Source of the DNA: Gemmatimonadales bacterium
GTDB taxonomy: Bacteria; Gemmatimonadota; Gemmatimonadetes; Gemmatimonadales; GWC2-71-9
Reading direction: 5' to 3'
Assembly (NCBI GenBank): GCA_035280265.1
Contig: DATEGE010000005.1
Coordinates: 983-64,982, forward strand
Length of the DNA stretch: 64,000 nt
A model generated the notes under the pieces. The model was not told the DNA's origin, searched no databases, and worked only from the letters and a program-made list of their open reading frames with translations. Position 1 is the first letter of the stretch. The number at the start of each line of letters is the position of its first letter. Positions 4,853 to 50,726 of the stretch are shown in pieces. Both the position numbers and the translations under genes were made by a program.

Positions 4853-5122
4853 TCAGCGAAGCTTGGTAATGCGATGGATGGTTTCGAGCGCCGTCACCGG
4901 ATCGGTGGCAGTGGCCTTGCCCGACATCGGTCCGGTGGCTGCCGGCCACGAGGCGACGGCATCGCGGATGTCGAGCAGCACCTCGAGTAACAACTGCTCG
5001 CGCTGATAGGCGGCGTCGAGGTCCGCCATACGCGCCTGGTCGTTCGCTACCTTGGCGCGCTGGTAGGCCTCTCGGTAGATGGCTTCGAGATTTGCGAAGA
5101 TGCGGTCGCGGGGACGGGGCAT
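4853..5122 (-). CDS. Hypothetical small protein (89 aa)
   Basis: Read from ATG 5122 (MPRPRDRIFANLEAIYREAYQRAKVANDQARMADLD...). Third positions are G/C-rich. The longer track ORF (to 5350) runs through the repeat array and is unlikely. No family recognised. Confidence 0.45.
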   Translation of the reverse strand: MPRPRDRIFANLEAIYREAYQRAKVANDQARMADLDAAYQREQLLLEVLLDIRDAVASWPAATGPMSGKATATDPVTALETIHRITKLR

Positions 5123-5138
5123 GGAGAGAAAATATAGA

Positions 5139-5223
5139 GGCGACGGATGAGAATGCGACTGATGATAAGGCGACGACGATGAGCGACGGATGAAGGGCGC
5201 GACGGACGAAGCGGCGATGATGG
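5139..5223. repeat. Tandem array of about six 13-15-bp units, consensus GGCGACGGATGAnnA
   Basis: Read directly: ggcgacggatgagaa tgcgactgatgataa ggcgacgacgatgag cgacggatgaagg gcgcgacggacgaa gcggcgatgatgg. It is the inverted counterpart of the array at 5683-5757. Confidence 0.85.
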
Positions 5224-5297
5224 CAATGCGTGCAATTCGGGTGCGACCGGCGACGAAACGATAAAGGTTGCCAATAACGGCCCCGTTAGGTTGCCAA

Positions 5298-5667
5298 ATG
5301 GTCAAGTGCGAACGGCTACATGCCTGGCGCATGGCCCACGAGTTCGCCAAAGCGGTATATCGCGTCTACCCAAGCGTTTCCGAAGAGCGAGCTGTACGGG
5401 ATCGTCTCACAGATGCGGCGGGCTTCGCTCTCCGTTCCCACTAACATTGTCGAGGGCACAGCCAAGCGGGGGCCGGGTGAGTGCCGCCGCTTCCTCGATA
5501 CCGCCTGGGGCTCGCTTGCAGAGATGTGGTACGTGCTTCTGTTCCGCGCGGAGATGGAACTCCTAACGCCGGAGCAGCGACGGGACCTAGAGCGACTTCG
5601 CTCCAGAACTGCCAAGCTGTTGTGGGGTCTGTACCGAACGGTGGCAGCGCGCGCTAGGAGCTCGTAG
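5298..5667 (+). pseudogene. Four-helix-bundle protein gene (23S rRNA intervening-sequence protein / Avd-like family) interrupted by a +1 frameshift
   Basis: The frame of ATG 5298 gives MVKCERLHAWRMAHEFAKAVYRV and stops after 50 codons. The conserved core QAFPKSELYGIVSQMRRASLSVPTNIVEGTAKRG...FLDTAWGSLAEM continues in track ORF 5320-5667. Removing one T near 5367 joins them into one 122-aa ORF. Confidence 0.7.
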
Positions 5668-5682
5668 CTGCCGAGCGCCTTA

Positions 5683-5757
5683 CCATCCCTCGCCTTGTCA
5701 TCCCCCGCCTCGTCATCCCCCGCCTCATCATCCCTCGCCTCATCATCCGTCGCCTTC
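5683..5757. repeat. Tandem array of five 15-bp units, consensus TCATCCCyCGCCTCr (reverse complement of the 5139-5223 motif)
   Basis: Read directly: ccatccctcgccttg tcatcccccgcctcg tcatcccccgcctca tcatccctcgcctca tcatccgtcgccttc. The last unit overlaps the final codons and stop of the DUF1015 gene. Confidence 0.9.
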
Positions 5758-7011
5758 TACCCTCCGCAGCACCAGCCCGCTGGGCACCTTCGGGACGAAG
5801 TACGTCGACTTGGGCGGCATCACGTCGCCCGCGTCCGCCACCGCGAACACCTCCGCGACTTTGGTGGGATTGAGGAGCACGGCGGCCGCCGCCCGGCCGC
5901 CCCGCACCGCGTCGAACGCCGCTCGGGGATCGGGGGTGTAGGCGAGCGATGGCGTGGCGGGCCCCGCCCCGAGGATGTGCTGCACGACCAGCGCCTCGAT
6001 GCGCGCCACGTCGAGCGCGCGAACCGCCGCGCTGCGACCCAGCTCCGGCACCGCGTCGAGCGACACCGTTGGCTTGAGCACCAGCGTGACATCGTACGCG
6101 TCGGGGAACGCGACGATGCACGCCGTGCGCTCGCGCCCTAGCTCGGCCAGACGCTCGACGCGATCCATGCACGGTGCCACGCGGCCGACGTCGAACCACT
6201 CACGCCATGCCGCGACGAGCTTGGTTGGGTCGCGGCCCGCCCCGAACACGATCCGATGCGTGGGAAGGATGGTCAGGCCAGGATCTCCCGCCGGGACGAT
6301 GAACGCGAGCACGCGGTCGGCCGCGGGATGCTCCTGGGCATACGCCACCGCAGTCTCGTAGCGGTGATGGCCGTCGGCGATGTACAGCTGGTCCCGGCCG
6401 GCCAGCCGGGCCAGCTCGACCGCTGGCTCGCCGGAGACTGCCCACTGGCGGATGCCGACGCCGTCGAACTCGGCACGCGCAGCGGGCACCGCGGACGCCT
6501 GCCGCACCAGGGCGCGCGCCAGCGCACCATCGCCATCGGGGGCGAGCAGGAAGATGGATTCGAGGTTCGCGCCCGTGGCGCGCAGCAACGCCAGCCGATC
6601 GGCCTTGGGAGCGGCGTGCGTCCGTTCGTGCGGCCGTACGCGCCGCGACGAAAATGGCTCCGCCCGTAGGGCCGCCAGCATGCCGAGGCGCGTGCGCCGC
6701 TCGCCGGTGGGGAGCTGATAGTCTTGCGCCACCACGTATACCGACTCTCCGGGATCGCGCCGCAACACGCCCGCGGCTCGCCACGCCGCGAGTAGAGCGG
6801 CGGCATGGGCGTAGCGATCCTCGTTGGCTCCCCCCCTCCCCCTCGGTGGCGCTTCCGGCAACATCAGATTCACGATATTGTGGGGATCACGCGCTGCGAG
6901 TCGCGCACGGTCCTCCGGGGAAACGACGTCGTACGGAGGAGCGATGAGCGCGCTCAGGCGATCCGTCGCGGCATACCGCTCGCCCTGAAACGGTGCCACC
7001 AGGGGCGGCAT
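5743..7011 (-). CDS. DUF1015 family protein
   Basis: Start chosen at ATG 7011 (MPPLVAPFQGERYAATDRLSALIAPPYDVVSPEDR), which matches the usual DUF1015 N-terminus. The track ORF extends to 7173, but that would overlap the divergent MazG-like gene. Confidence 0.75.
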   Translation of the reverse strand: MPPLVAPFQGERYAATDRLSALIAPPYDVVSPEDRARLAARDPHNIVNLMLPEAPPRGRGGANEDRYAHAAALLAAWRAAGVLRRDPGESVYVVAQDYQLPTGERRTRLGMLAALRAEPFSSRRVRPHERTHAAPKADRLALLRATGANLESIFLLAPDGDGALARALVRQASAVPAARAEFDGVGIRQWAVSGEPAVELARLAGRDQLYIADGHHRYETAVAYAQEHPAADRVLAFIVPAGDPGLTILPTHRIVFGAGRDPTKLVAAWREWFDVGRVAPCMDRVERLAELGRERTACIVAFPDAYDVTLVLKPTVSLDAVPELGRSAAVRALDVARIEALVVQHILGAGPATPSLAYTPDPRAAFDAVRGGRAAAAVLLNPTKVAEVFAVADAGDVMPPKSTYFVPKVPSGLVLRRVEGDG

Positions 7012-16262: not shown

Positions 16263-17672
16263 CTAGATCGGTCGCTTGACCCGCGCCCGCGGCCGTGGCC
16301 TCCCGTGCGGCCGCGGGTCGTCTTCGGATTGAATCTGGTCGAGCGCCCATTGAGCGGCGTCCTGAACGTCGCCGGAGTCGTCCGAAAGGGCCGCCTTGAG
16401 CGGCTCGACCGCGCGGGGGCTTTCGAGTTGGCCCAGCGCCCATGCTGCGGCGATGCGGACTTCCGGCTCGCGGTCCTTGAGCGCAGCCGCCAGGGGATCC
16501 ACCGCGGCTTCGTCCTCGAGCTGGCCGAGCGCCCACGCAGCGAGCTGCCGTGACTCCGAATCCGGGGCCTTGAGCGCAGCGGCGAGCACGTCGAGCGCGC
16601 TCCGGTCCTCGATGACCCCCAGCGCCCAGATCGCGGCGTGCTTCAGATCGGGCGAGTCACCCTGTAGCAAAGCCCCGAGACCTCGGACGGCACGCGGGCT
16701 CGCGATTTGCCCAAGGGCGTGGACCGCGGCCAGCTGCACGTCGTGGTCGCCATCGCGCAGCGCCGATAGCAGCAGCTCGGTCGCATCCTTGTCCGCGATT
16801 TGTCCCAGGGCCCACGCGGCGGCACGGCGCACCCGGGGCGACTGATCCTTGAGGGCCTCCCCCAACGCGGGCACCGCGCCGCCGCTCTCGAGCTGACCCA
16901 GCGCCCACGCCGCCATCTCCCGCACTTCGGGCGAGCGGTCTCGCAACGCCTGGCTGAGAGGCGCGATCGCGCGGGAACTCTGCGCTTCCCCCAACGCCCA
17001 GGCCGCGGCCCGGCGCACCGGCGCGGAGTCGTCCGCCAGAGCTTGCGCCAGCGGACCGACCGAGCTCGAATCCGCCAGCTCCCCGAGACCGCGGGCTGCC
17101 ATCGCCCGGACGCTCGCATTCCTGTCTCGGAGCGCGTCCTGCAGGGGCCGCCGCGCGTGGCGATCGTCCAGCTCGCCGAGGCCAAGGGCACCCGTTTCGC
17201 GCAGGCCGGGGCTCGCGTCGCGAAGCAGCGCGACGAAGGCGTCGTAGATCCCTGGCGAGCGCGCCCTGCCGAGCACGCGCGCGGCGATATTGCGGACGCA
17301 GCGGTTGTCGTCACGGAGCGCCGCGCGGAACGCTCCGAGCGCGGCTGCGCCGTCGCGCCGTCTCCCGCCGGCGTAAGCGTGAACCCGCATATGCGGCGCG
17401 CGGAAGCCCCCGTGCATCATCATCGGCATCGGCATCGGGGTGGGCATCGGCATCGGCATTGGCATGGGGAGCAGTCTCGTATCCCAGGGGAAGCCCCACG
17501 CGTTGCTGATCGTCTGACCGGCCAGCTCGCAGACGGTGGAATCGGAAGTCTGGAGGAGCGCCAGGACCCGGGCGACGGCGGCCGAGTCCTTGGGAGCCTG
17601 GGGGTCATCGGGAACCTGCTGCGCAGCGAGCCCTGTCGCCGCGAGGACCAGGAAAGCCGACCAGCGGGGCAT
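16263..17672 (-). CDS. Secreted HEAT-repeat (PBS-lyase-type) protein with an internal Met-Pro tract
   Basis: 469-aa ORF with a signal peptide (MPRWSAFLVLAATGLAAQQ). It holds about eleven repeats of the VRxAAAWALGxLxxxxAVxPLxxALxD type, plus PMPMPMPMPTPMPMPMMMHGG near the N-terminus. Confidence 0.85.
   Translation of the reverse strand: MPRWSAFLVLAATGLAAQQVPDDPQAPKDSAAVARVLALLQTSDSTVCELAGQTISNAWGFPWDTRLLPMPMPMPMPTPMPMPMMMHGGFRAPHMRVHAYAGGRRRDGAAALGAFRAALRDDNRCVRNIAARVLGRARSPGIYDAFVALLRDASPGLRETGALGLGELDDRHARRPLQDALRDRNASVRAMAARGLGELADSSSVGPLAQALADDSAPVRRAAAWALGEAQSSRAIAPLSQALRDRSPEVREMAAWALGQLESGGAVPALGEALKDQSPRVRRAAAWALGQIADKDATELLLSALRDGDHDVQLAAVHALGQIASPRAVRGLGALLQGDSPDLKHAAIWALGVIEDRSALDVLAAALKAPDSESRQLAAWALGQLEDEAAVDPLAAALKDREPEVRIAAAWALGQLESPRAVEPLKAALSDDSGDVQDAAQWALDQIQSEDDPRPHGRPRPRARVKRPI
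17415..17467. repeat. Hexanucleotide tandem repeat (CGGCAT)n encoding (Met-Pro)n
   Basis: Read directly: catcatcat cggcat cggcat cggggt gggcat cggcat cggcat tggcat. It is in frame within the HEAT-repeat gene. Confidence 0.85.
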
Positions 17673-17769: not shown

Positions 17770-19617
17770 TTAGTGCGCCGGTTCCCGCAGCTCATGCAGC
17801 GTATTGGTCGCGGGATTGCGCAGCATCTGCACAATCCCCCGGGGCCAGCGGATCAATATGCTGTCGACCTCGCGCCGGTCCCCGAGACCGAAATGCACCA
17901 CGCGACTGGACTGGGCCAGGTAGCCGCCCGCCGGGTTGACCTGCCGGACCATCACCTTGCTCCCGGCCCAGAGCCGAACCAGCGCGCCGATCGCATCCCG
18001 GTTGCTGTTGGTTCCCGTCAGTCGAAACTCCACGTAGTTCCGGCGGGGAAACCGGCTCGCGAAAAAGTACGGGCGGCCGTTGAAGTTGTTGGTCACGATC
18101 TCGAGCCGTCCGTCGCCGTCGAAATCGGCTACGACGGCACTGCGCGAGCTCCGCGCAGCCGCTTTGCCACCGACCGTTTCTTCCAGGTAGATGCCACCTG
18201 TTGGTGGCTCGATGCCAAGAGCGGCAGCCTGGTCGCGGAACGTGCCGTCCCCGTTGTTCATCATCAAATGGTTGGGCCAGTAGTAGAAGGGATAGCCCAT
18301 CCCCGAAGTGATGAACACGTCCTCGTTGCCGTCGTTGTCGAAGTCACCGGCGGCCACACCCCAGGGCCAAAGCGTCTCCAACCCGGCGGGGAGGGCAGTC
18401 TCGGTGAACTTCCCCTGACCGAGATTGTGGTACAGCGCGTTGCCGAACAGCAGGGCGTCATAGTCCTCGCCCATCTTCGCGAACAATGCTCGTGCGGTCG
18501 TCGCGAAGCCGGGGGCTGCCTCGTCGACCGTCGGGCCCAGCGGTGACTGGAACCGCTGGTGTTGTGTCCGTCTCGCCGTTTCGAGTGAGCGGTGCTCTGC
18601 ATCGAGCCCCATCCACATGTCCGAGTGCATGTCCACCACGAATAGATCGAGCCGTCCGTCGCCGTCATAGTCGAACACTTTGCAGCCGATCGCCCCATAC
18701 GACGTCCGGCCGAGGGTCTGCGCGGTGACGTCGGTGAAGGTGCCGTGGCCGCTGTTGTGATACAGCTGACCCCGGCCGAACATGCTGGGAACGAACAGGT
18801 CCAGGAACCCGTCCTCGTCGTAGTCGAACACAGCGACGTCACCGGCCCAGCCGCGGCCTCGGAGACCGGCGCGGTCGGTCACATCGGTGAACGTTCCGTC
18901 GCCATTGTTGTGGTACAGCACGTTGAACTCCTTGGGCGTGGTGATCGTGCTGCCGAGGTCGGCCTTGCCCTCGAAGGCCCCCGTCGCGGAGTCGAACGTG
19001 TCGGTGGTCCAGCGGCCGGTATTGGTGAGAAACAGATCCAGGTAGCCGTCGTTGTCGTAGTCGAAGAACACCGCGGTTTGCGAATGGCCGACATGGCTCA
19101 GCCCCGCTGCCGCGGTGACGTCCTCGAAGGTGCCGTCGCCCCTATTATGGAACAGCACGTTGCCGCCACGGGTCGTGGTCACGTACAGGTCTTCCCAGCC
19201 GTCGTTGTCGTAGTCCGCGAACGTGGCCGCGACGGAGACCCGGCCGCGGAGGGCCACGCCTGCCTTCGCGGTGACGTCGACGAACGTCCCATCTCCCATG
19301 TTGTGGTACAGGGCGTTGCCGCCCTGCTGGTTGAGAAAGTAGATGTCCTCGCGGCCGTCGTTATCGTAATCGCCGACCGCCAGCCCCGAGCCGTGATCGT
19401 ACAGGTTGATGTGGAACTGCTCGCCTTGCTCCCTCGGGAGGTCATGCATCCGGAAGGTGATCCCGGCTTCCCGAGCGCGCTCCTGAAAGCCCGTCCCCCT
19501 GGAGTGCTCGCAGCCGGCGATCAACCCGGCCACGACCACCGCGACGGCTAGTCTGGCCGCGGGCGACCTGATCTCGTCAGACACGTTCATCCTTAGTTCG
19601 ACCGTTTTTCTGAGCAC
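17770..19617 (-). CDS. CRTAC1/ASPIC-UnbV family FG-GAP (VCBS) repeat protein, probable lipoprotein
   Basis: It has repeated DYDNDGxxDLxV and LYHNxGDGTFxDVT motifs. The C-terminal segment AIGALVRLWAGSKVMVRQVNPAGGYLAQSSRVVHFGLG is UnbV/ASPIC-like. A lipobox LIAGC is present. An alternative start is ATG 19590. Confidence 0.8.
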   Translation of the reverse strand: MLRKTVELRMNVSDEIRSPAARLAVAVVVAGLIAGCEHSRGTGFQERAREAGITFRMHDLPREQGEQFHINLYDHGSGLAVGDYDNDGREDIYFLNQQGGNALYHNMGDGTFVDVTAKAGVALRGRVSVAATFADYDNDGWEDLYVTTTRGGNVLFHNRGDGTFEDVTAAAGLSHVGHSQTAVFFDYDNDGYLDLFLTNTGRWTTDTFDSATGAFEGKADLGSTITTPKEFNVLYHNNGDGTFTDVTDRAGLRGRGWAGDVAVFDYDEDGFLDLFVPSMFGRGQLYHNSGHGTFTDVTAQTLGRTSYGAIGCKVFDYDGDGRLDLFVVDMHSDMWMGLDAEHRSLETARRTQHQRFQSPLGPTVDEAAPGFATTARALFAKMGEDYDALLFGNALYHNLGQGKFTETALPAGLETLWPWGVAAGDFDNDGNEDVFITSGMGYPFYYWPNHLMMNNGDGTFRDQAAALGIEPPTGGIYLEETVGGKAAARSSRSAVVADFDGDGRLEIVTNNFNGRPYFFASRFPRRNYVEFRLTGTNSNRDAIGALVRLWAGSKVMVRQVNPAGGYLAQSSRVVHFGLGDRREVDSILIRWPRGIVQMLRNPATNTLHELREPAH

Positions 19618-21671: not shown

Positions 21672-21773
21672 AACGCGGAACGCGGAGCGCGGAACGCGGA
21701 ACTGATGAAGGAGGTCGCGTGCCGAGAGACGCACGCTCTGCTGTTCCGCGTTCCGCATTCCGACTTCCGCGTT
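21672..21773. repeat. Long imperfect hairpin whose arms are inverted arrays of 7-bp tandem repeats (GCGGAAC)
   Basis: The left arm is 21672-21702 (aacgcggaacgcggagcgcggaacgcggaac). The right arm is 21743-21773 (gttccgcgttccgcattccgacttccgcgtt). By my alignment 27 of 31 positions are complementary. The 40-nt loop contains a small palindrome gcgtgc-n8-gcacgc (21717-21736). Confidence 0.85.
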
Positions 21774-26360: not shown

Positions 26361-26627
26361 ATGCAAGCGTCTGGTGGCTGGGCGGCCCTCGCCACGCGCC
26401 TCGCCCTGCGGGCAGCGGTGAACCCGCGCCTCGCCCTCGATCTCGTCCGTCTCGCGTGGAGCTTCCGGGCCCGCGGCTGGTACCGCCGTCTGCCATTCCT
26501 GCCGCTGCCTCCGCGCGAGTACCTGCGCTGGCGGATGTTTACTGCGTACGGCGACGAGCAGGCAGTGCCACCGCTCGTGGACGTCGTGCGGTTCGCGAGA
26601 TGGCGTCGCGAGACGATGCATTTATGA
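26361..26627 (+). CDS. Hypothetical small protein (88 aa)
   Basis: ATG 26361. MQASGGWAALATRLALRAAVNPRLALDLVRLAWSFRARGWYRRLPFLPLPPREYLRWRMFTAYGD. Third positions are G/C-rich. Its stop forms an ATGA overlap with the queG start. Confidence 0.55.
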   Translation: MQASGGWAALATRLALRAAVNPRLALDLVRLAWSFRARGWYRRLPFLPLPPREYLRWRMFTAYGDEQAVPPLVDVVRFARWRRETMHL

Positions 26628-27607
26628 AAGGCGTCCAGCAAAACCGTCGCGCGGAGACGTCGCGCAGAACCGTCGCGGTAAAGCGTCGAGCGATTGAGCT
26701 GGGTTTCGCTGCGGTGGGAGTGGCAAGCCTCGAGCCGAGCGCGCACGCAACCGAGCTCGATCGCTGGTTAGCCGCCGGATACGCCGGCTCGATGACTTAC
26801 CTGCACCGCCAGGCGGCGAAACGAAAGAACCCGGCCCGCATCATGCCCAACGCGCGCGTCGCGGTGGTCACCCTGACCAATTATTTCCACGGGACGACTG
26901 ATCCCGGGCGCGAGCCCGGGGGTCGCGGCAAGGTCGCGCAGTACGCGTGGGCATCGGACTATCACCGCGTGCTGGGGAGCCGGCTCGAGCGGCTCGCGAC
27001 GGCGATCCGAGAGATCGTTCCAGGTGCAACGGCGCGCTGCTATGTCGATGCCGGGCCGGTCCCGGAGCGGGAGCTGGCACAGCACGCCGGGCTCGGCTGG
27101 ATCGGGAAGAACATGATGCTGATAGATCCGGAACGCGGATCGTTCACCTTCATCGGCGTGGTCCTCACGGACGCCGCGCTGGTCCCCGATCTGCCGTTCG
27201 AAGCCGATCGCTGTGGCACCTGCCGCGCGTGCCTCGACGCCTGCCCCACCGATGCGTTCGTCGCCCCGCATATGCTCGATGCACGACGCTGCATCTCGTA
27301 CCTGACGATCGAGCACCGGGGCGCGTTCAATGAGGCCGAGCGCAGGCTGGTGGGCGAGTGGCTGTTCGGATGCGACGTGTGTCAGGACGTGTGTCCGTGG
27401 AACCAGAAGTTCGCGCGCCCCACGGCCGACGCCGACCTGGCCGTGCGTCACGAGATCGCCGCTCCCGATCTCGACCAGCTGCTCGAGATCGAGCGCGAGG
27501 CATTCGATCGCCGTTTTGGCGACACTGCGTTCGAGCGTCCCGGCGTCGCGGGCATGCGACGGAACGCCGCGGCCGTGCTCACGAATAGCGGTCCGGCCGG
27601 CCCGTGA
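26624..27607 (+). CDS. queG: Epoxyqueuosine reductase
   Basis: ATG 26624 (MKGVQQNRR...). Motifs: GYAGSMTYLHR, WASDYHRVLGSRL, GLGWIGKNMMLI, the ferredoxin-type clusters CGTCRACLDACPT and CDVCQDVCPWN, and RRCISYLTIEHRG. Confidence 0.9.
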   Translation: MKGVQQNRRAETSRRTVAVKRRAIELGFAAVGVASLEPSAHATELDRWLAAGYAGSMTYLHRQAAKRKNPARIMPNARVAVVTLTNYFHGTTDPGREPGGRGKVAQYAWASDYHRVLGSRLERLATAIREIVPGATARCYVDAGPVPERELAQHAGLGWIGKNMMLIDPERGSFTFIGVVLTDAALVPDLPFEADRCGTCRACLDACPTDAFVAPHMLDARRCISYLTIEHRGAFNEAERRLVGEWLFGCDVCQDVCPWNQKFARPTADADLAVRHEIAAPDLDQLLEIEREAFDRRFGDTAFERPGVAGMRRNAAAVLTNSGPAGP

Positions 27608-40561: not shown

Positions 40562-40591
40562 ATTATAGGGGGTGTGGGATACAGACGTCGA
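40562..40591 (-). promoter_or_regulatory. Candidate promoter giving a leaderless mnmG mRNA
   Basis: On the minus strand TATAAT (40567-40562) lies only 6 nt upstream of the mnmG ATG. TCGACG/CGACGT lies 17-18 nt further upstream. There is no Shine-Dalgarno. Confidence 0.3.
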
Positions 40592-40612
40592 GGTAGACGC
40601 CGAGGGTGCCGT

Positions 40613-40632
40613 GACGCCGAGTGGATGTGAGG
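40613..40632. repeat. Inverted-repeat arm (left) flanking the four-helix-bundle gene
   Basis: GACGCCGAGTGGATGTGAGG is the perfect reverse complement of 41093-41112. It ends 2 nt from the gene stop codon. Confidence 0.9.
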
Positions 40633-40634
40633 AC

Positions 40635-41012
40635 TTAGGGCAGAGGAACCCTCGACGCGGCGCCGCTTATCTTCCGCAACAGTCCGTACAAGGTACGCCC
40701 TGTTTCGGTCACCAGCGCTTCGAGCCTCCCGAAGTCAGCGGGCTGGATGTATCCAAGCTCACGCGCCATTTCGACTATCGTTTCAACCTCGGCTAAGGAG
40801 CCGCGGGCAGTGTCGAGGAAGCGACGGTATTCTCGTGAACCGTGTCGAGTGTTGCCTTCTGCGATGTTCAGAGGCACGCTGTAACAGGCACGTCGCAACT
40901 GGTCGGCTAGAGCATGCTGTTCGTAATCAGGGAAGCCGCGAGAGGTTCGGACGCACTCAATGGCGAGCCGCTGTGCATGCTGCCAAGCCTTTAGGGTCTT
41001 GTAGTGGGCCAC
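40635..41012 (-). CDS. Four-helix-bundle protein (23S rRNA intervening-sequence protein / Avd-like family), intact
   Basis: GTG 41012, 125 aa. YKTLKAWQHAQRLAIECVRTSRGFPDYEQHALADQLRRACYSVPLNIAEGNTRHGSREYRRFLDTARGSLAEVET is typical of the family. It uses many A/T-ending codons, unlike neighbouring genes. Confidence 0.85.
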   Translation of the reverse strand: MAHYKTLKAWQHAQRLAIECVRTSRGFPDYEQHALADQLRRACYSVPLNIAEGNTRHGSREYRRFLDTARGSLAEVETIVEMARELGYIQPADFGRLEALVTETGRTLYGLLRKISGAASRVPLP

Positions 41013-41092
41013 GGAAGAACAGTGTCATCGAGTGGAGCACAGAGCGGTATCGAAAGATTGCCGGCGGTGCCTTTCCTATGCTTGCCCTCACC

Positions 41093-41112
41093 CCTCACAT
41101 CCACTCGGCGTC
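41093..41112. repeat. Inverted-repeat arm (right) flanking the four-helix-bundle gene
   Basis: CCTCACATCCACTCGGCGTC is the perfect reverse complement of 40613-40632. It lies 80 nt upstream of the gene start and 29 nt after the ABC permease stop. Confidence 0.9.
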
Positions 41113-41140
41113 TACAGCGGCTTGGCGTCTGCCTCACCGT

Positions 41141-42403
41141 CTAGGCTCTTACCCAACGCACGATTTCCTTGATGCTTGGTCGCTTGCCCGTCATCAGTAT
41201 CCCCACCCGATATATCCGCGCCGCCACCCACGTGACCACAACCGTCCCGACGACGAGGAGTGCTAACGAACTCGTCACGTCCATCCACGTGAGGTTGCCC
41301 GCGGCCCAGCGCGCCGGCGTGGCGATCGGTGCGGTGAAGGGTACGAGCGACAGGGTCACCGACAGGTGCGACTCCGGGTTCGCCAGCGTGGCGAATGAGC
41401 TGAAGAACGCGATCATGATGAGCACGGTCACCGGCGCCTGACTCTGCCGCGCCTCCTGCTCGGTCGAGGACATAGCCGCGACAGCCGCGAACATGGCGGA
41501 GTACAGGAAGAATCCTCCCAGGAAGAACGCCACGAAGACGAGCGCCGTGGCGAGCGACAGGTGGGGGACCTGGAACACCTGACCCATGTCGCGGCCCTGG
41601 TCGGGCATGCTGCTCAGCAGCGCCGCGCGCCGACCCAGCAGAAAGCGCCCTGCCACGCCCCAAATGAGAAACTGCACCAGTGAAACGGCGCCAACGCCAA
41701 GCACTTTCCCGAACAGCAGCTGGAACGGCCGGATCGAGCTCACCAGCACTTCCACGATCCGAGAGGTCTTCTCGTCGATCACCGAGCCCATCACCTGCAC
41801 GCCGTACAGCAGTAGGGCGATGTAGAGCGTGACCATCATGAAATAGGCCAGCGCGAACGACTGCCCGGCACTCTCACCAGTGGCGCGGCCGTGCGAGATC
41901 TTATTCGTTCGTAATGCCACCCGCACCTGCGCGTGCGCCACCACACCCGGATCCACGCCGGCCCGCTCGAGCCGCGCGTTCTCGACCAGACGGCCCAGGG
42001 CCTGCCGCAGCTCGCCGATGTCGTCGAGGGACGAGACGTTCGAGGCACGGTATTCGACTCCCCCCGCCTCGAGCAGCGAGTCCGACACGAGGAGGAAGCC
42101 GTCCAGGCGACGGGCCTCCACCTCGCTTTGCAACGAATCCTCCACTCCCACCCTCGCCGAGATCCGCGCTACCACGGCGAACCCCGGGAGCGCGTCGACG
42201 CGCGCGGCGACGGTCTCGCCGAAGGACGTCGTGGTTCGATCCACCACCACGATCCGCTTCACTCCGCTGCGCTGCATCATCAGCAGGGGAGCGAAGAATA
42301 CCGCCGCGAAGAAAACGGGACCGAGCAAGGCCATGACCCAGAACGAGCGCCGTCGCACGCGCTCGATGAACTCGCGACGGATCACGGCCCAGATTTTCCT
42401 CAC
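41141..42403 (-). CDS. ABC-2 type transporter permease (NatB-like)
   Basis: 420-aa ORF. The N-terminus is MRKIWAVIRREFIERVRRRSFWVMALLGPVFFAAVFFAPLL. A large extracytoplasmic loop is followed by five C-terminal helices. An ATGA-type overlap joins it to the ATPase gene. Confidence 0.8.
   Translation of the reverse strand: MRKIWAVIRREFIERVRRRSFWVMALLGPVFFAAVFFAPLLMMQRSGVKRIVVVDRTTTSFGETVAARVDALPGFAVVARISARVGVEDSLQSEVEARRLDGFLLVSDSLLEAGGVEYRASNVSSLDDIGELRQALGRLVENARLERAGVDPGVVAHAQVRVALRTNKISHGRATGESAGQSFALAYFMMVTLYIALLLYGVQVMGSVIDEKTSRIVEVLVSSIRPFQLLFGKVLGVGAVSLVQFLIWGVAGRFLLGRRAALLSSMPDQGRDMGQVFQVPHLSLATALVFVAFFLGGFFLYSAMFAAVAAMSSTEQEARQSQAPVTVLIMIAFFSSFATLANPESHLSVTLSLVPFTAPIATPARWAAGNLTWMDVTSSLALLVVGTVVVTWVAARIYRVGILMTGKRPSIKEIVRWVRA

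Positions 42404-49310: not shown

Positions 49311-50726
<1,416 letters not shown>

Follow-up and report, generated by a model that had tools for sequence, protein, structure and literature searches.

An apparently degraded gene of the IVP family (for intervening-sequence protein of 23S rRNA), enclosed by inverted arrays of 15-nt tandem repeats, lies between two protein genes in the stretch of DNA analyzed here, 64,000 nt of contig DATEGE010000005.1 from a Gemmatimonadales bacterium (henceforth the window). The site (5123-5760) is most plausibly read as an old, decaying foldback cassette which resembles an rRNA intervening sequence (IVS) but is situated outside rRNA, between host genes; we put the probability of this reading at about 0.6. 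The same build recurs elsewhere: across phyla, there is a tight association of this gene family with inverted short-tandem-repeat arrays, and the site is one case of a general design.

Inverted repeat arrays accompany the gene family across phyla

Related loci were collected through scans seeded with the protein, which returned 12 loci from genomes and 35 from metagenomes at 32-84% identity; the named genomes belonged to Gemmatimonadota, Acidobacteriota, Planctomycetota, Bacteroidota, and Chloroflexota. At each locus, the gene's 250-nt upstream flank was aligned to its downstream flank of equal length in reverse complement, an inverted repeat being scored from an alignment score of at least 30, and position-shifted alignments from the same loci served as controls. 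(Duplex folding of the whole 250-nt flanks was non-discriminating in high-GC DNA and was replaced by this local alignment with positional controls.) Bracketing inverted repeats scoring at least 30 were present at 40 of 46 loci, compared with 1 of 406 controls, among which the maximum was 31. Tandem arrays (period 5-20) with reverse-complementary units occupied both flanks in 30 of the 45 non-redundant loci, versus none of 360 controls. Coincidence is excluded by these numbers.

The geometry of the cassettes is stereotyped, with the downstream arm starting 0-20 nt past the stop codon and the upstream arm ending 20-130 nt before the start codon. The arms nearly always proved to be short tandem arrays. 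Their units in the related loci are mostly 7-8 nt long (GACGGAAG, GGCGGTTN, GGTGGGRT, AGTCAGG, CAGTGGY, TTAGCTC), although 15-nt units occur in L007, and their number ranges from ~3 to ~14. At 31 of 32 loci, both arms have their G-rich strand directed inward, 5' to 3'; given this symmetry, transcription of either strand would encounter the G-rich arm before the C-rich one.

The design recurs around related genes in Gemmatimonadota, Acidobacteriota, Bacteroidota, Chloroflexota, Cyanobacteriota, and Alphaproteobacteria. Several of these copies reside on plasmids of cultured organisms, namely Calothrix and Nostoc punctiforme (unit GGGTGTA), Nostoc edaphicum (GGGAGTA), Pseudanabaena (GCTTTTA), Picosynechococcus (GGAGATAA), Azospirillum (GAGGACG), and Gemmatirosa (GGGCAGGA). 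On cyanobacterial plasmids, the gene and its repeat arms were found inserted into tight operons, in one case with cas10 and cmr3 as neighbors, in another with cas6 and cas4, and in a third, in antisense orientation, with the genes for the beta and alpha subunits of ribonucleotide reductase (L058 1447-1876, L059 1285-1966, and L062 1383-1881). A copy on pCC7120alpha of Nostoc PCC 7120 (L057 1828-1900) is accompanied by (TCTGCCC)x4.9 on its downstream side only, and transposase genes adjoin it upstream; one of the two arms of this cassette may have been lost.

The cassette and its repeat arrays

The site in the window is bounded by two minus-strand genes, DUF1015 (stop codon at 5743-5745) and an open reading frame (ORF) of 89 aa (start at 5122), after which an amidohydrolase gene follows (Table 1). 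The 89-aa ORF has no match in Pfam or NCBIfam; it is conserved, with a counterpart of 84-90 aa occupying this position in each of the nine orthologous loci, the empty site described below included. A reading made from the letters of the DNA before this analysis (the sequence-only reading) had placed an IVP-family gene on the plus strand between these two genes, and the matches to Pfam and TIGR02436 as well as the ORF positions agree with this placement.

Table 1. Features of the window treated in the text; positions are counted from its first nucleotide.
Feature	Position	Strand	Basis and remarks
89-aa ORF	4853-5122	-	ORF list; host gene directly downstream of the cassette in host-operon direction
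Left arm, about six degenerate 15-nt units	5138-5221	+	Tandem Repeats Finder, repeat search, sequence
Non-repetitive spacer, left arm to start codon	5222-5297	+	Sequence; orthologue comparison (L015, L002, L050, L054)
Four-helix-bundle gene (PF05635/TIGR02436, Avd-like), probable pseudogene	5298-5667	+	Family models, tblastn, orthologue
Right arm, 15-nt unit CGCCTCATCATCCCT in 5.3 copies	5676-5755	+	Tandem Repeats Finder, repeat search
DUF1015 gene	5743-7011	-	Pfam E 9e-70; host gene upstream of the cassette in host-operon direction
Second cassette	40583-41142	-	tblastn with corrected protein, ORFs, repeats, TIGR02436
ORF-less foldback	21672-21773		(AACGCGG)x4.4 and (GTTCCGC)x4.6, 40-nt loop

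The left array, G-rich on the plus strand, was resolved by Tandem Repeats Finder at 5138-5193 (period 15, 3.9 copies, 76% matches) and continues in degenerate form to 5221; its units are AGGCGACGGATGAGA, ATGCGACTGATGATA, AGGCGACGACGATGA, GCGACGGATGAAGGGC, GCGACGGACGAAGCG, and GCGATGATGGC. Thus, the upstream array of about six units that had been proposed does exist, but it is degenerate, with four clear units and two partial ones. The right array is C-rich on the plus strand and more regular (period 15, 5.3 copies, 89% matches). It had been described as five exact units; the array is there, but only three of the five match TCATCCCYCGCCTCR exactly, one deviating at two positions and one at three. 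The right-arm unit is the reverse complement of the left-arm unit, and the arrays are mutually inverted, forming 35-nt arms with 83% complementarity plus further registers; in an inverted-repeat scan of the whole window, these arms rank first. The 12-mer GGCGACGGATGA was found exactly as proposed, at 5139-5150 on the plus strand and inverted at 5743-5754 on the minus strand. It is not spread over the window, as 10 of 24 matches with at most two mismatches fall inside the cassette and the total is near chance expectation. The ends of the cassette coincide with the outer ends of the arms, the cassette as a whole being inserted exactly between one host gene's stop codon and the spacer that precedes the next gene, and G+C content within is 57-63%, compared with ~70% outside.

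Between the left arm and the gene, the spacer holds GAAACGAT, a motif shared with orthologues, and two copies of the direct repeat AGGTTGCCAA; presumably, it represents the 5' region of the gene itself. The conserved ATATAG beside the left arm was considered as an outward promoter and ruled out, because the consensus scan was empty and this stretch has its homologue in the empty site's spacer and is, therefore, host sequence. An Rfam scan of the cassette yielded sub-threshold chance matches only.

When 5120-5770 was folded as RNA, the two arrays paired on both strands, in the minimum-energy as well as the centroid structure (z -2.9 and -4.1), with 55 long-range pairs predicted for plus-strand RNA and 72 for minus-strand RNA, the minus strand being that of the host operon. 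The stem that the sequence-only reading had envisaged is thus predicted to be more stable than shuffled sequence on either strand, and the duplex of the arms alone is predicted at -89.7 kcal/mol (shuffles, -59.2 +/- 5.5). The base of this stem would leave ~15-20 nt between the host stop codon and the next start codon, compared with 18 nt in the empty site. Also the proposal of an IVS-type architecture outside rRNA held up, inasmuch as a gene of the IVP family is enclosed by a predicted long stem in a window without rRNA.

A gene apparently decaying in the window and intact in relatives

The plus-strand ORF at 5320-5667 matches PF05635 with an E value of 2.4e-20 (73.2 bits; cutoff 33.8), and the frame-corrected product of 122 aa matches TIGR02436 with 89.2 bits (cutoff 24). 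The nearest solved structure is that of XCC0516 (PDB 2gsc; E 7e-19), which is pentameric. In the window, the reading frame is broken: according to tblastn, residues 1-23 are encoded from 5298 and the remainder from ~5368 in the +1 frame, the cause being a 1-nt insertion at ~5365 (window tatcgcgTctaccc, L001 orthologue tatcgcgctaccc). The copy in the window, therefore, has no uninterrupted frame of the ~110-135 aa by which the family was defined. On the syntenic metagenomic contig L001, the gene (protein P0001) is intact, encodes 122 aa, and is 97% identical to the window copy; intact genes of 122 aa are likewise present in L002, L015, and L050. Derived changes in the window copy affect V79, R83, and A84, residues conserved in all other orthologues, and its dN/dS (the ratio of nonsynonymous to synonymous substitution rates) relative to L001 is ~1.4, while the neighboring DUF1015 gene shows a dN of 0.003 and a dS of 0. 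All this has the look of genuine decay, and probably not of an assembly error, and suggests that the gene is under relaxed constraint in the window. Among the intact orthologous genes, dN/dS is 0.05-0.11 at a dS of 0.4-1.5, close to that of DUF1015 (0.09-0.12); where it is intact, the protein is under purifying selection; it is functional in the relatives and apparently decaying in the window.

In a collection of species-representative genomes, the best match of the protein was 51% identical. A phage collection contained no relatives of the gene, and the defence-system models of PADLOC gave no match.

History of the insertion site

The gene order amidohydrolase, 89-aa ORF, site, DUF1015, MazG, and RsgA is common to nine genomes, which differ in what occupies the site. 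L001, L002, L015/L016, and L050 carry an intact gene between 15-nt arrays of ~4 to ~6 units upstream and ~3.5 to 5 downstream, and the partial locus L017 has seven upstream units. L054 has kept both arrays, with a gene remnant of 41 codons between them. In L052 (4754-5284) and L053 (4769-5242), the gene is 50-60% identical, doubly frameshifted in L052, and bordered by 8-nt units (GTCGGACN, GACGGAAC). L051, finally, has neither gene nor repeats, and only 18 nt separate the start of its 87-aa ORF from the DUF1015 stop codon. Presence of the cassette is, therefore, sporadic, with one empty site and eight related genomes in which it is occupied. Arrays and gene come and go together, both being missing from L051, and the possibility that the repeats are plain conserved flanking sequence did not hold up. 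In a neighbor-joining tree of DUF1015, the empty L051 falls between occupied clades, with the 15-nt type on both sides of it; hence, a Gemmatimonadales clade had the cassette at this site ancestrally, and L051 lost it in one clean event.

The junctions between occupied and empty sites correspond to an indel extending exactly from arm to arm, without target duplication: the empty L051 reads AAGATACACG followed directly by TCA, whereas the occupied L052 reads AAGATATCG followed by AGGCGTCGGAC at the one junction and GTCCGACGCCT followed by CTTA at the other. For the deviating cassettes of L052 and L053, there are two possible origins: one cassette replaced another at a hot spot, or the resident one diverged rapidly. 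More distant genomes keep the 15-nt type. Elsewhere, gene pairs at 60-72% identity which stand in different contexts have related units (CAGTGGN, AGGAGYC, TAGCTN), so that gene and arms appear to share a history. At the loci examined, no recent transposition, transposase, or target duplication was seen. The copy in the window is thus best described as a probable pseudogene within an old, apparently vertically inherited insertion.

At this site, the end of a host gene has changed as well. DUF1015 terminates within the repeat, as had been pointed out before: it reads ...VEGDG-TGA in the last unit, and because a unit of 15 nt equals five codons, G-x-G-stop recurs in this frame in the units beyond, every unit carrying a TGA. 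Comparison of nine C-termini revealed that the seven other DUF1015 orthologues end with GLV[LVMI]Rxx-stop immediately before the arm. Only in the window and in L001 has the ancestral stop codon TAA become GAA, and translation continues for four codons to a TGA supplied by the repeat (5743-5757); the 99%-identical DUF1015 orthologue measures 422 aa. The ending G-D-G-TGA, therefore, results from a secondary loss of the stop codon, which the sequence-only reading had missed.

Two further elements of the same build

The window contains two more elements built like the one described so far, a second cassette and an ORF-less hairpin, both of which had escaped earlier notice. The three constitute the top three inverted repeats of the 64 kb; those ranking lower are coding noise of 70-78% complementarity, except for a 22-nt pair (91%) and two pairs that are short and palindromic. 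The three elements have neither a unit nor an arm sequence in common.

The gene of the second cassette is intact (40635-41012, minus strand, 125 aa; TIGR02436, 105.3 bits) and 40% identical to the degraded one. It is located between an ABC-2 permease gene and mnmG, in the same direction as both. Its arms (40583-40642 and 41083-41142) match over 30 nt at 90% and over 22 nt at 82%, and contain sub-repeats of ~17 nt. For the sense RNA, 62 long-range pairs are predicted (z -5.1), and the arm duplex is predicted at -95.6 kcal/mol, compared with -45.0 +/- 5.1 for shuffles.

The ORF-less hairpin is predicted to fold with -64.7 kcal/mol (z -5.5). It begins directly after the stop codon of a gene for a transporter of the major facilitator superfamily (MFS), as it always does among the orthologues. 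In the orthologous spacer between the MFS and ATP-grasp genes, L063, L065, and L066 have the hairpin, whereas L064 lacks it and has a spacer of 25 nt. The unit drifts from AACGCGG via AATGCGG to ATTGCGG, both arms changing together, and 8 of 29 predicted pairs have changes on both sides, a count based on only four sequences. These compensatory changes are the best evidence obtained here that pairing itself is being maintained.

Likeness to known elements

rRNA IVSs with an S23p ORF, as in Leptospira, Coxiella burnetii, and the candidate phyla radiation, encode a protein of the same family as the cassette, and there, too, terminal inverted repeats which form a long stem surround the ORF. They are likewise low in G+C (36% versus 42.5% in Coxiella; PMC4990558) and sporadically present, with an ORF that is often decaying or unexpressed, like the copy in the window (PMC4990558; PMC11270868). 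In contrast to them, the cassette occupies an operon spacer between protein genes rather than an rRNA gene, and its arms are tandem arrays of 75-85 nt, whereas the 23S IVS of Coxiella, as described, has a terminal stem of 28 bp, which is cut by RNase III (PMC4990558). Excision by RNase III has been shown for rRNA IVSs; for the cassette, we infer it. No rRNA match was found anywhere in the window, the only Rfam match at gathering level being a thiamine pyrophosphate riboswitch (49314-49411, plus strand, 63.4 bits).

Short tandemly repeated repetitive (STRR) heptamers have long been known in cyanobacteria, among them the heterocystous ones, and Vioque (1997) is cited for STRR inside RNase P RNA. 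A similar pattern exists in Xanthomonas, where 70-75 convergent pairs of G-rich heptamer arrays lie on opposite strands and their function "still remains to be elucidated" (Rehm et al. 2015, PMC4692102). Like the cassette arms, the arrays of Xanthomonas and Nostoc (such as GGGAATC and GGGGAYT) are intergenic and made of G-rich 7-nt units, with a polarity in Xanthomonas that matches that of the cassettes; their copy number varies between relatives whereas their position is conserved, as in the cassettes, and cyanobacterial cassettes use units such as GGGTGTA, GGGAGTA, and GCTTTTA. Polarity and predicted pairing of these heptamer pairs were both seen here; as for unit length, that of the degraded cassette is 15 nt, and that of the ORF-less element and most related cassettes 7-8 nt. 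In the heptamer papers, the arrays are treated as quadruplex-forming or regulatory, and the four-helix-bundle gene goes unmentioned; the term S23 occurs zero times in PMC4692102.

The closest structural analogy is of eukaryotic origin. Foldback (FB) transposons of Drosophila and other eukaryotes have long terminal inverted repeats built of short tandem sub-repeats around a center that is variable and sometimes absent; they make target-site duplications and use a transposase. The cassettes share with them the inverted termini of tandem sub-repeats and the coexistence of gene-bearing and gene-less forms. They differ from FB elements and miniature inverted-repeat transposable elements in that no target-site duplication was seen at the junctions and no near-identical copies exist among the three elements of the 64 kb.

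A distant homologue of the encoded protein, from the same Pfam clan and with the same fold, is the accessory protein Avd, a pentameric four-helix-bundle barrel. It binds RNA stem-loops and duplexes around the template of diversity-generating retroelements (DGRs), which is bracketed by complementary segments (bioRxiv 10.1101/2023.10.23.563531). The protein of the window differs from Avd in scoring far below the equivalog cutoff; no reverse transcriptase (RT) partner was identified among the neighbors in the nine syntenic loci, and the window contains no template or variable repeats. A figure legend in PMC10910872, finally, names the IVP family among domains linked to CRISPR; the operon insertions near cas genes would explain this mention as hitch-hiking.

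Proposed mechanism and its alternatives

A transcript running across the element on either strand would expose the G-rich arm first, and the C-rich arm would then pair with it into a long, imperfect duplex of 55-72 bp. This duplex would loop the cassette out and thereby restore the distance between host stop and start codons to about the original, and it would offer RNase III a substrate like that in rRNA IVSs. Being of the kind that RNase III cuts, it could explain why such a cassette is tolerated inside operons and structural RNAs. The repeat duplex may plausibly be bound by an Avd-like pentamer with a role in maintenance, mobility, or regulation; because Avd acts on RNA and its template is bracketed by complementary segments, such binding is a reasonable guess. 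The order of the arms, G-rich first, may avoid exposing an unpaired C-rich stretch to Rho, an idea that is our own.

Several observations weigh against a cassette acting at the RNA level. The loci were sampled from a single seed protein, and some of them are mutually orthologous. Within the cassette, the spacer included, no match to the sigma-70 consensus was found, and neither a promoter nor a terminator consensus. All gene pairs of at least 80% identity share their genomic context, so that no recent movement is evident and inheritance appears mostly vertical. In the 15-nt family, the arms of other genomes match as well as the own partner does, a likeness that stems from a conserved unit and not from co-variation specific to the locus, which precludes a claim of compensatory evolution for the degraded cassette; such changes were seen only in the ORF-less element. 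At the same time, the unit consensus GAGGCGACGGATGA has been retained in the window (W1) and in L001, L002, L015, L050, and L054 despite a dS of 0.9-1.5 and an adjacent spacer that has diverged; together with the matching of arms across genomes, this points to a constraint on the sequence of the unit, and not on complementarity alone. Whichever strand is considered, mismatches between arms are not skewed toward G-U-compatible changes (45 sense, 48 antisense, 83 transversions). In the gene-bearing cassettes, selection for RNA pairing is, therefore, unproven, and both a foldback acting at the DNA level and an iteron-like role of the units remain live rivals. Stem and cleavage at these loci are, besides, predictions from sequence and folding.

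According to the first of these rivals, the arrays are the termini of a DNA element which extrude as hairpins or a cruciform, and insertion, excision, or replacement proceeds by recombination or replication slippage, in the manner of eukaryotic FB transposons, the RNA stem being a by-product. The missing strand-specific wobble bias speaks for this explanation, and so do several features of the site history: the cassette is polymorphic for presence and absence with breakpoints exactly at the outer arm ends, a divergent gene with different arms is found at the same site in L052 and L053, unit copy number differs between orthologues, and the related units around 60-72% identical genes in different contexts imply that gene and arms travel together. 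However, the unit contains no transposase or recombinase, no target-site duplication is visible, and near-identical copies at different sites were not seen among the window elements and gene pairs compared. Inheritance, moreover, is mostly vertical at a dS of about 1, and the one empty site is most readily explained by a deletion, to which long palindromes are subject in any case. A DNA-level element is, therefore, taken seriously but considered unlikely.

The retained consensus bears on the second rival, in which the units are sequence-specific, iteron-like sites for the encoded pentamer or a host factor, and the arrays serve mainly as operators or assembly sites, for control of the gene or packaging of its RNA. 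Its conservation in six loci while synonymous sites are near saturation is in favor of such sites, as are the fact that unit type tracks gene lineage and the membership of the nucleic acid-binding Avd in the family; three unit types coexist in one genome, which makes the unit specific to the element and not to the host. But ORF-less hairpins keep their arrays without an encoded protein, L054 keeps them after loss of the gene, and the number of units (~3 to ~14) bears no relation to a five-fold symmetry, which renders this explanation rather improbable.

That the arrays are simple repeats born of slippage, a chance terminator hairpin, or the remnant of a DGR is very hard to uphold: short tandem repeats do arise easily by slippage, and the protein does match the Avd model weakly (E 0.0036), but the association statistics exclude coincidence, no T run follows the stem in the cassette, and the DGR remnant was rejected since the Avd equivalog model NF033474 scored 17.6 (the encoded protein) and 24.6 bits against a cutoff of 80, the window has no direct repeat of template/variable type, and PADLOC found no match. 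RT families were absent among the neighbors in the nine syntenic loci, the rest of the window not having been scanned for RT, and the window has no long direct repeat of high identity, only diverged protein-domain repeats.

A wider class of elements

Taken further, the reading of the site as a foldback cassette leads to a more general one, which we hold tentatively and at somewhat less than even odds: IVP-family genes might as a rule travel as cargo in a widespread, so far undescribed kind of foldback element in bacteria, with arms that are inverted arrays of 7-8-nt (sometimes 15-17-nt) units, and rRNA IVSs, cyanobacterial STRR heptamers, the convergent Xanthomonas pairs, and the CRISPR-associated IVP genes of cas-gene surveys might be one and the same element at different landing sites. 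ORF-less hairpins would then be decayed copies or landing pads, and the Avd-like pentamer would recognize the repeat duplex.

A published link between the IVP gene family and flanking tandem-repeat arrays was not found in the open-access literature. PF05635 is very common and several structures have been solved, yet a 2024 survey of rRNA insertions still calls the domain functionally uncharacterized (PMC11270868). The cyanobacterial STRR arrays and the heptamer pairs of Xanthomonas have been unexplained for decades. If gene and arrays are one element, both puzzles become testable in cultured organisms. The link would also explain why such genes occur inside cas and ribonucleotide reductase operons and inside rRNA without any functional tie being needed, and it gives annotators a rule for recognizing these insertions together with the frameshifts and stop-codon changes that accompany them.

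Other repeats in the window

Two further tandem arrays, (CATCGG)x7.5 at 17421-17468 and a 26-nt unit present 2.5 times at 26626-26691, have no inverted partner in the whole-window scan. Six diverged direct repeats of 93 nt (31 codons) at 16387-17006 presumably belong to a repeat-domain protein, and 18092-19323 contains several families of coding repeats spaced 150-240 nt apart.

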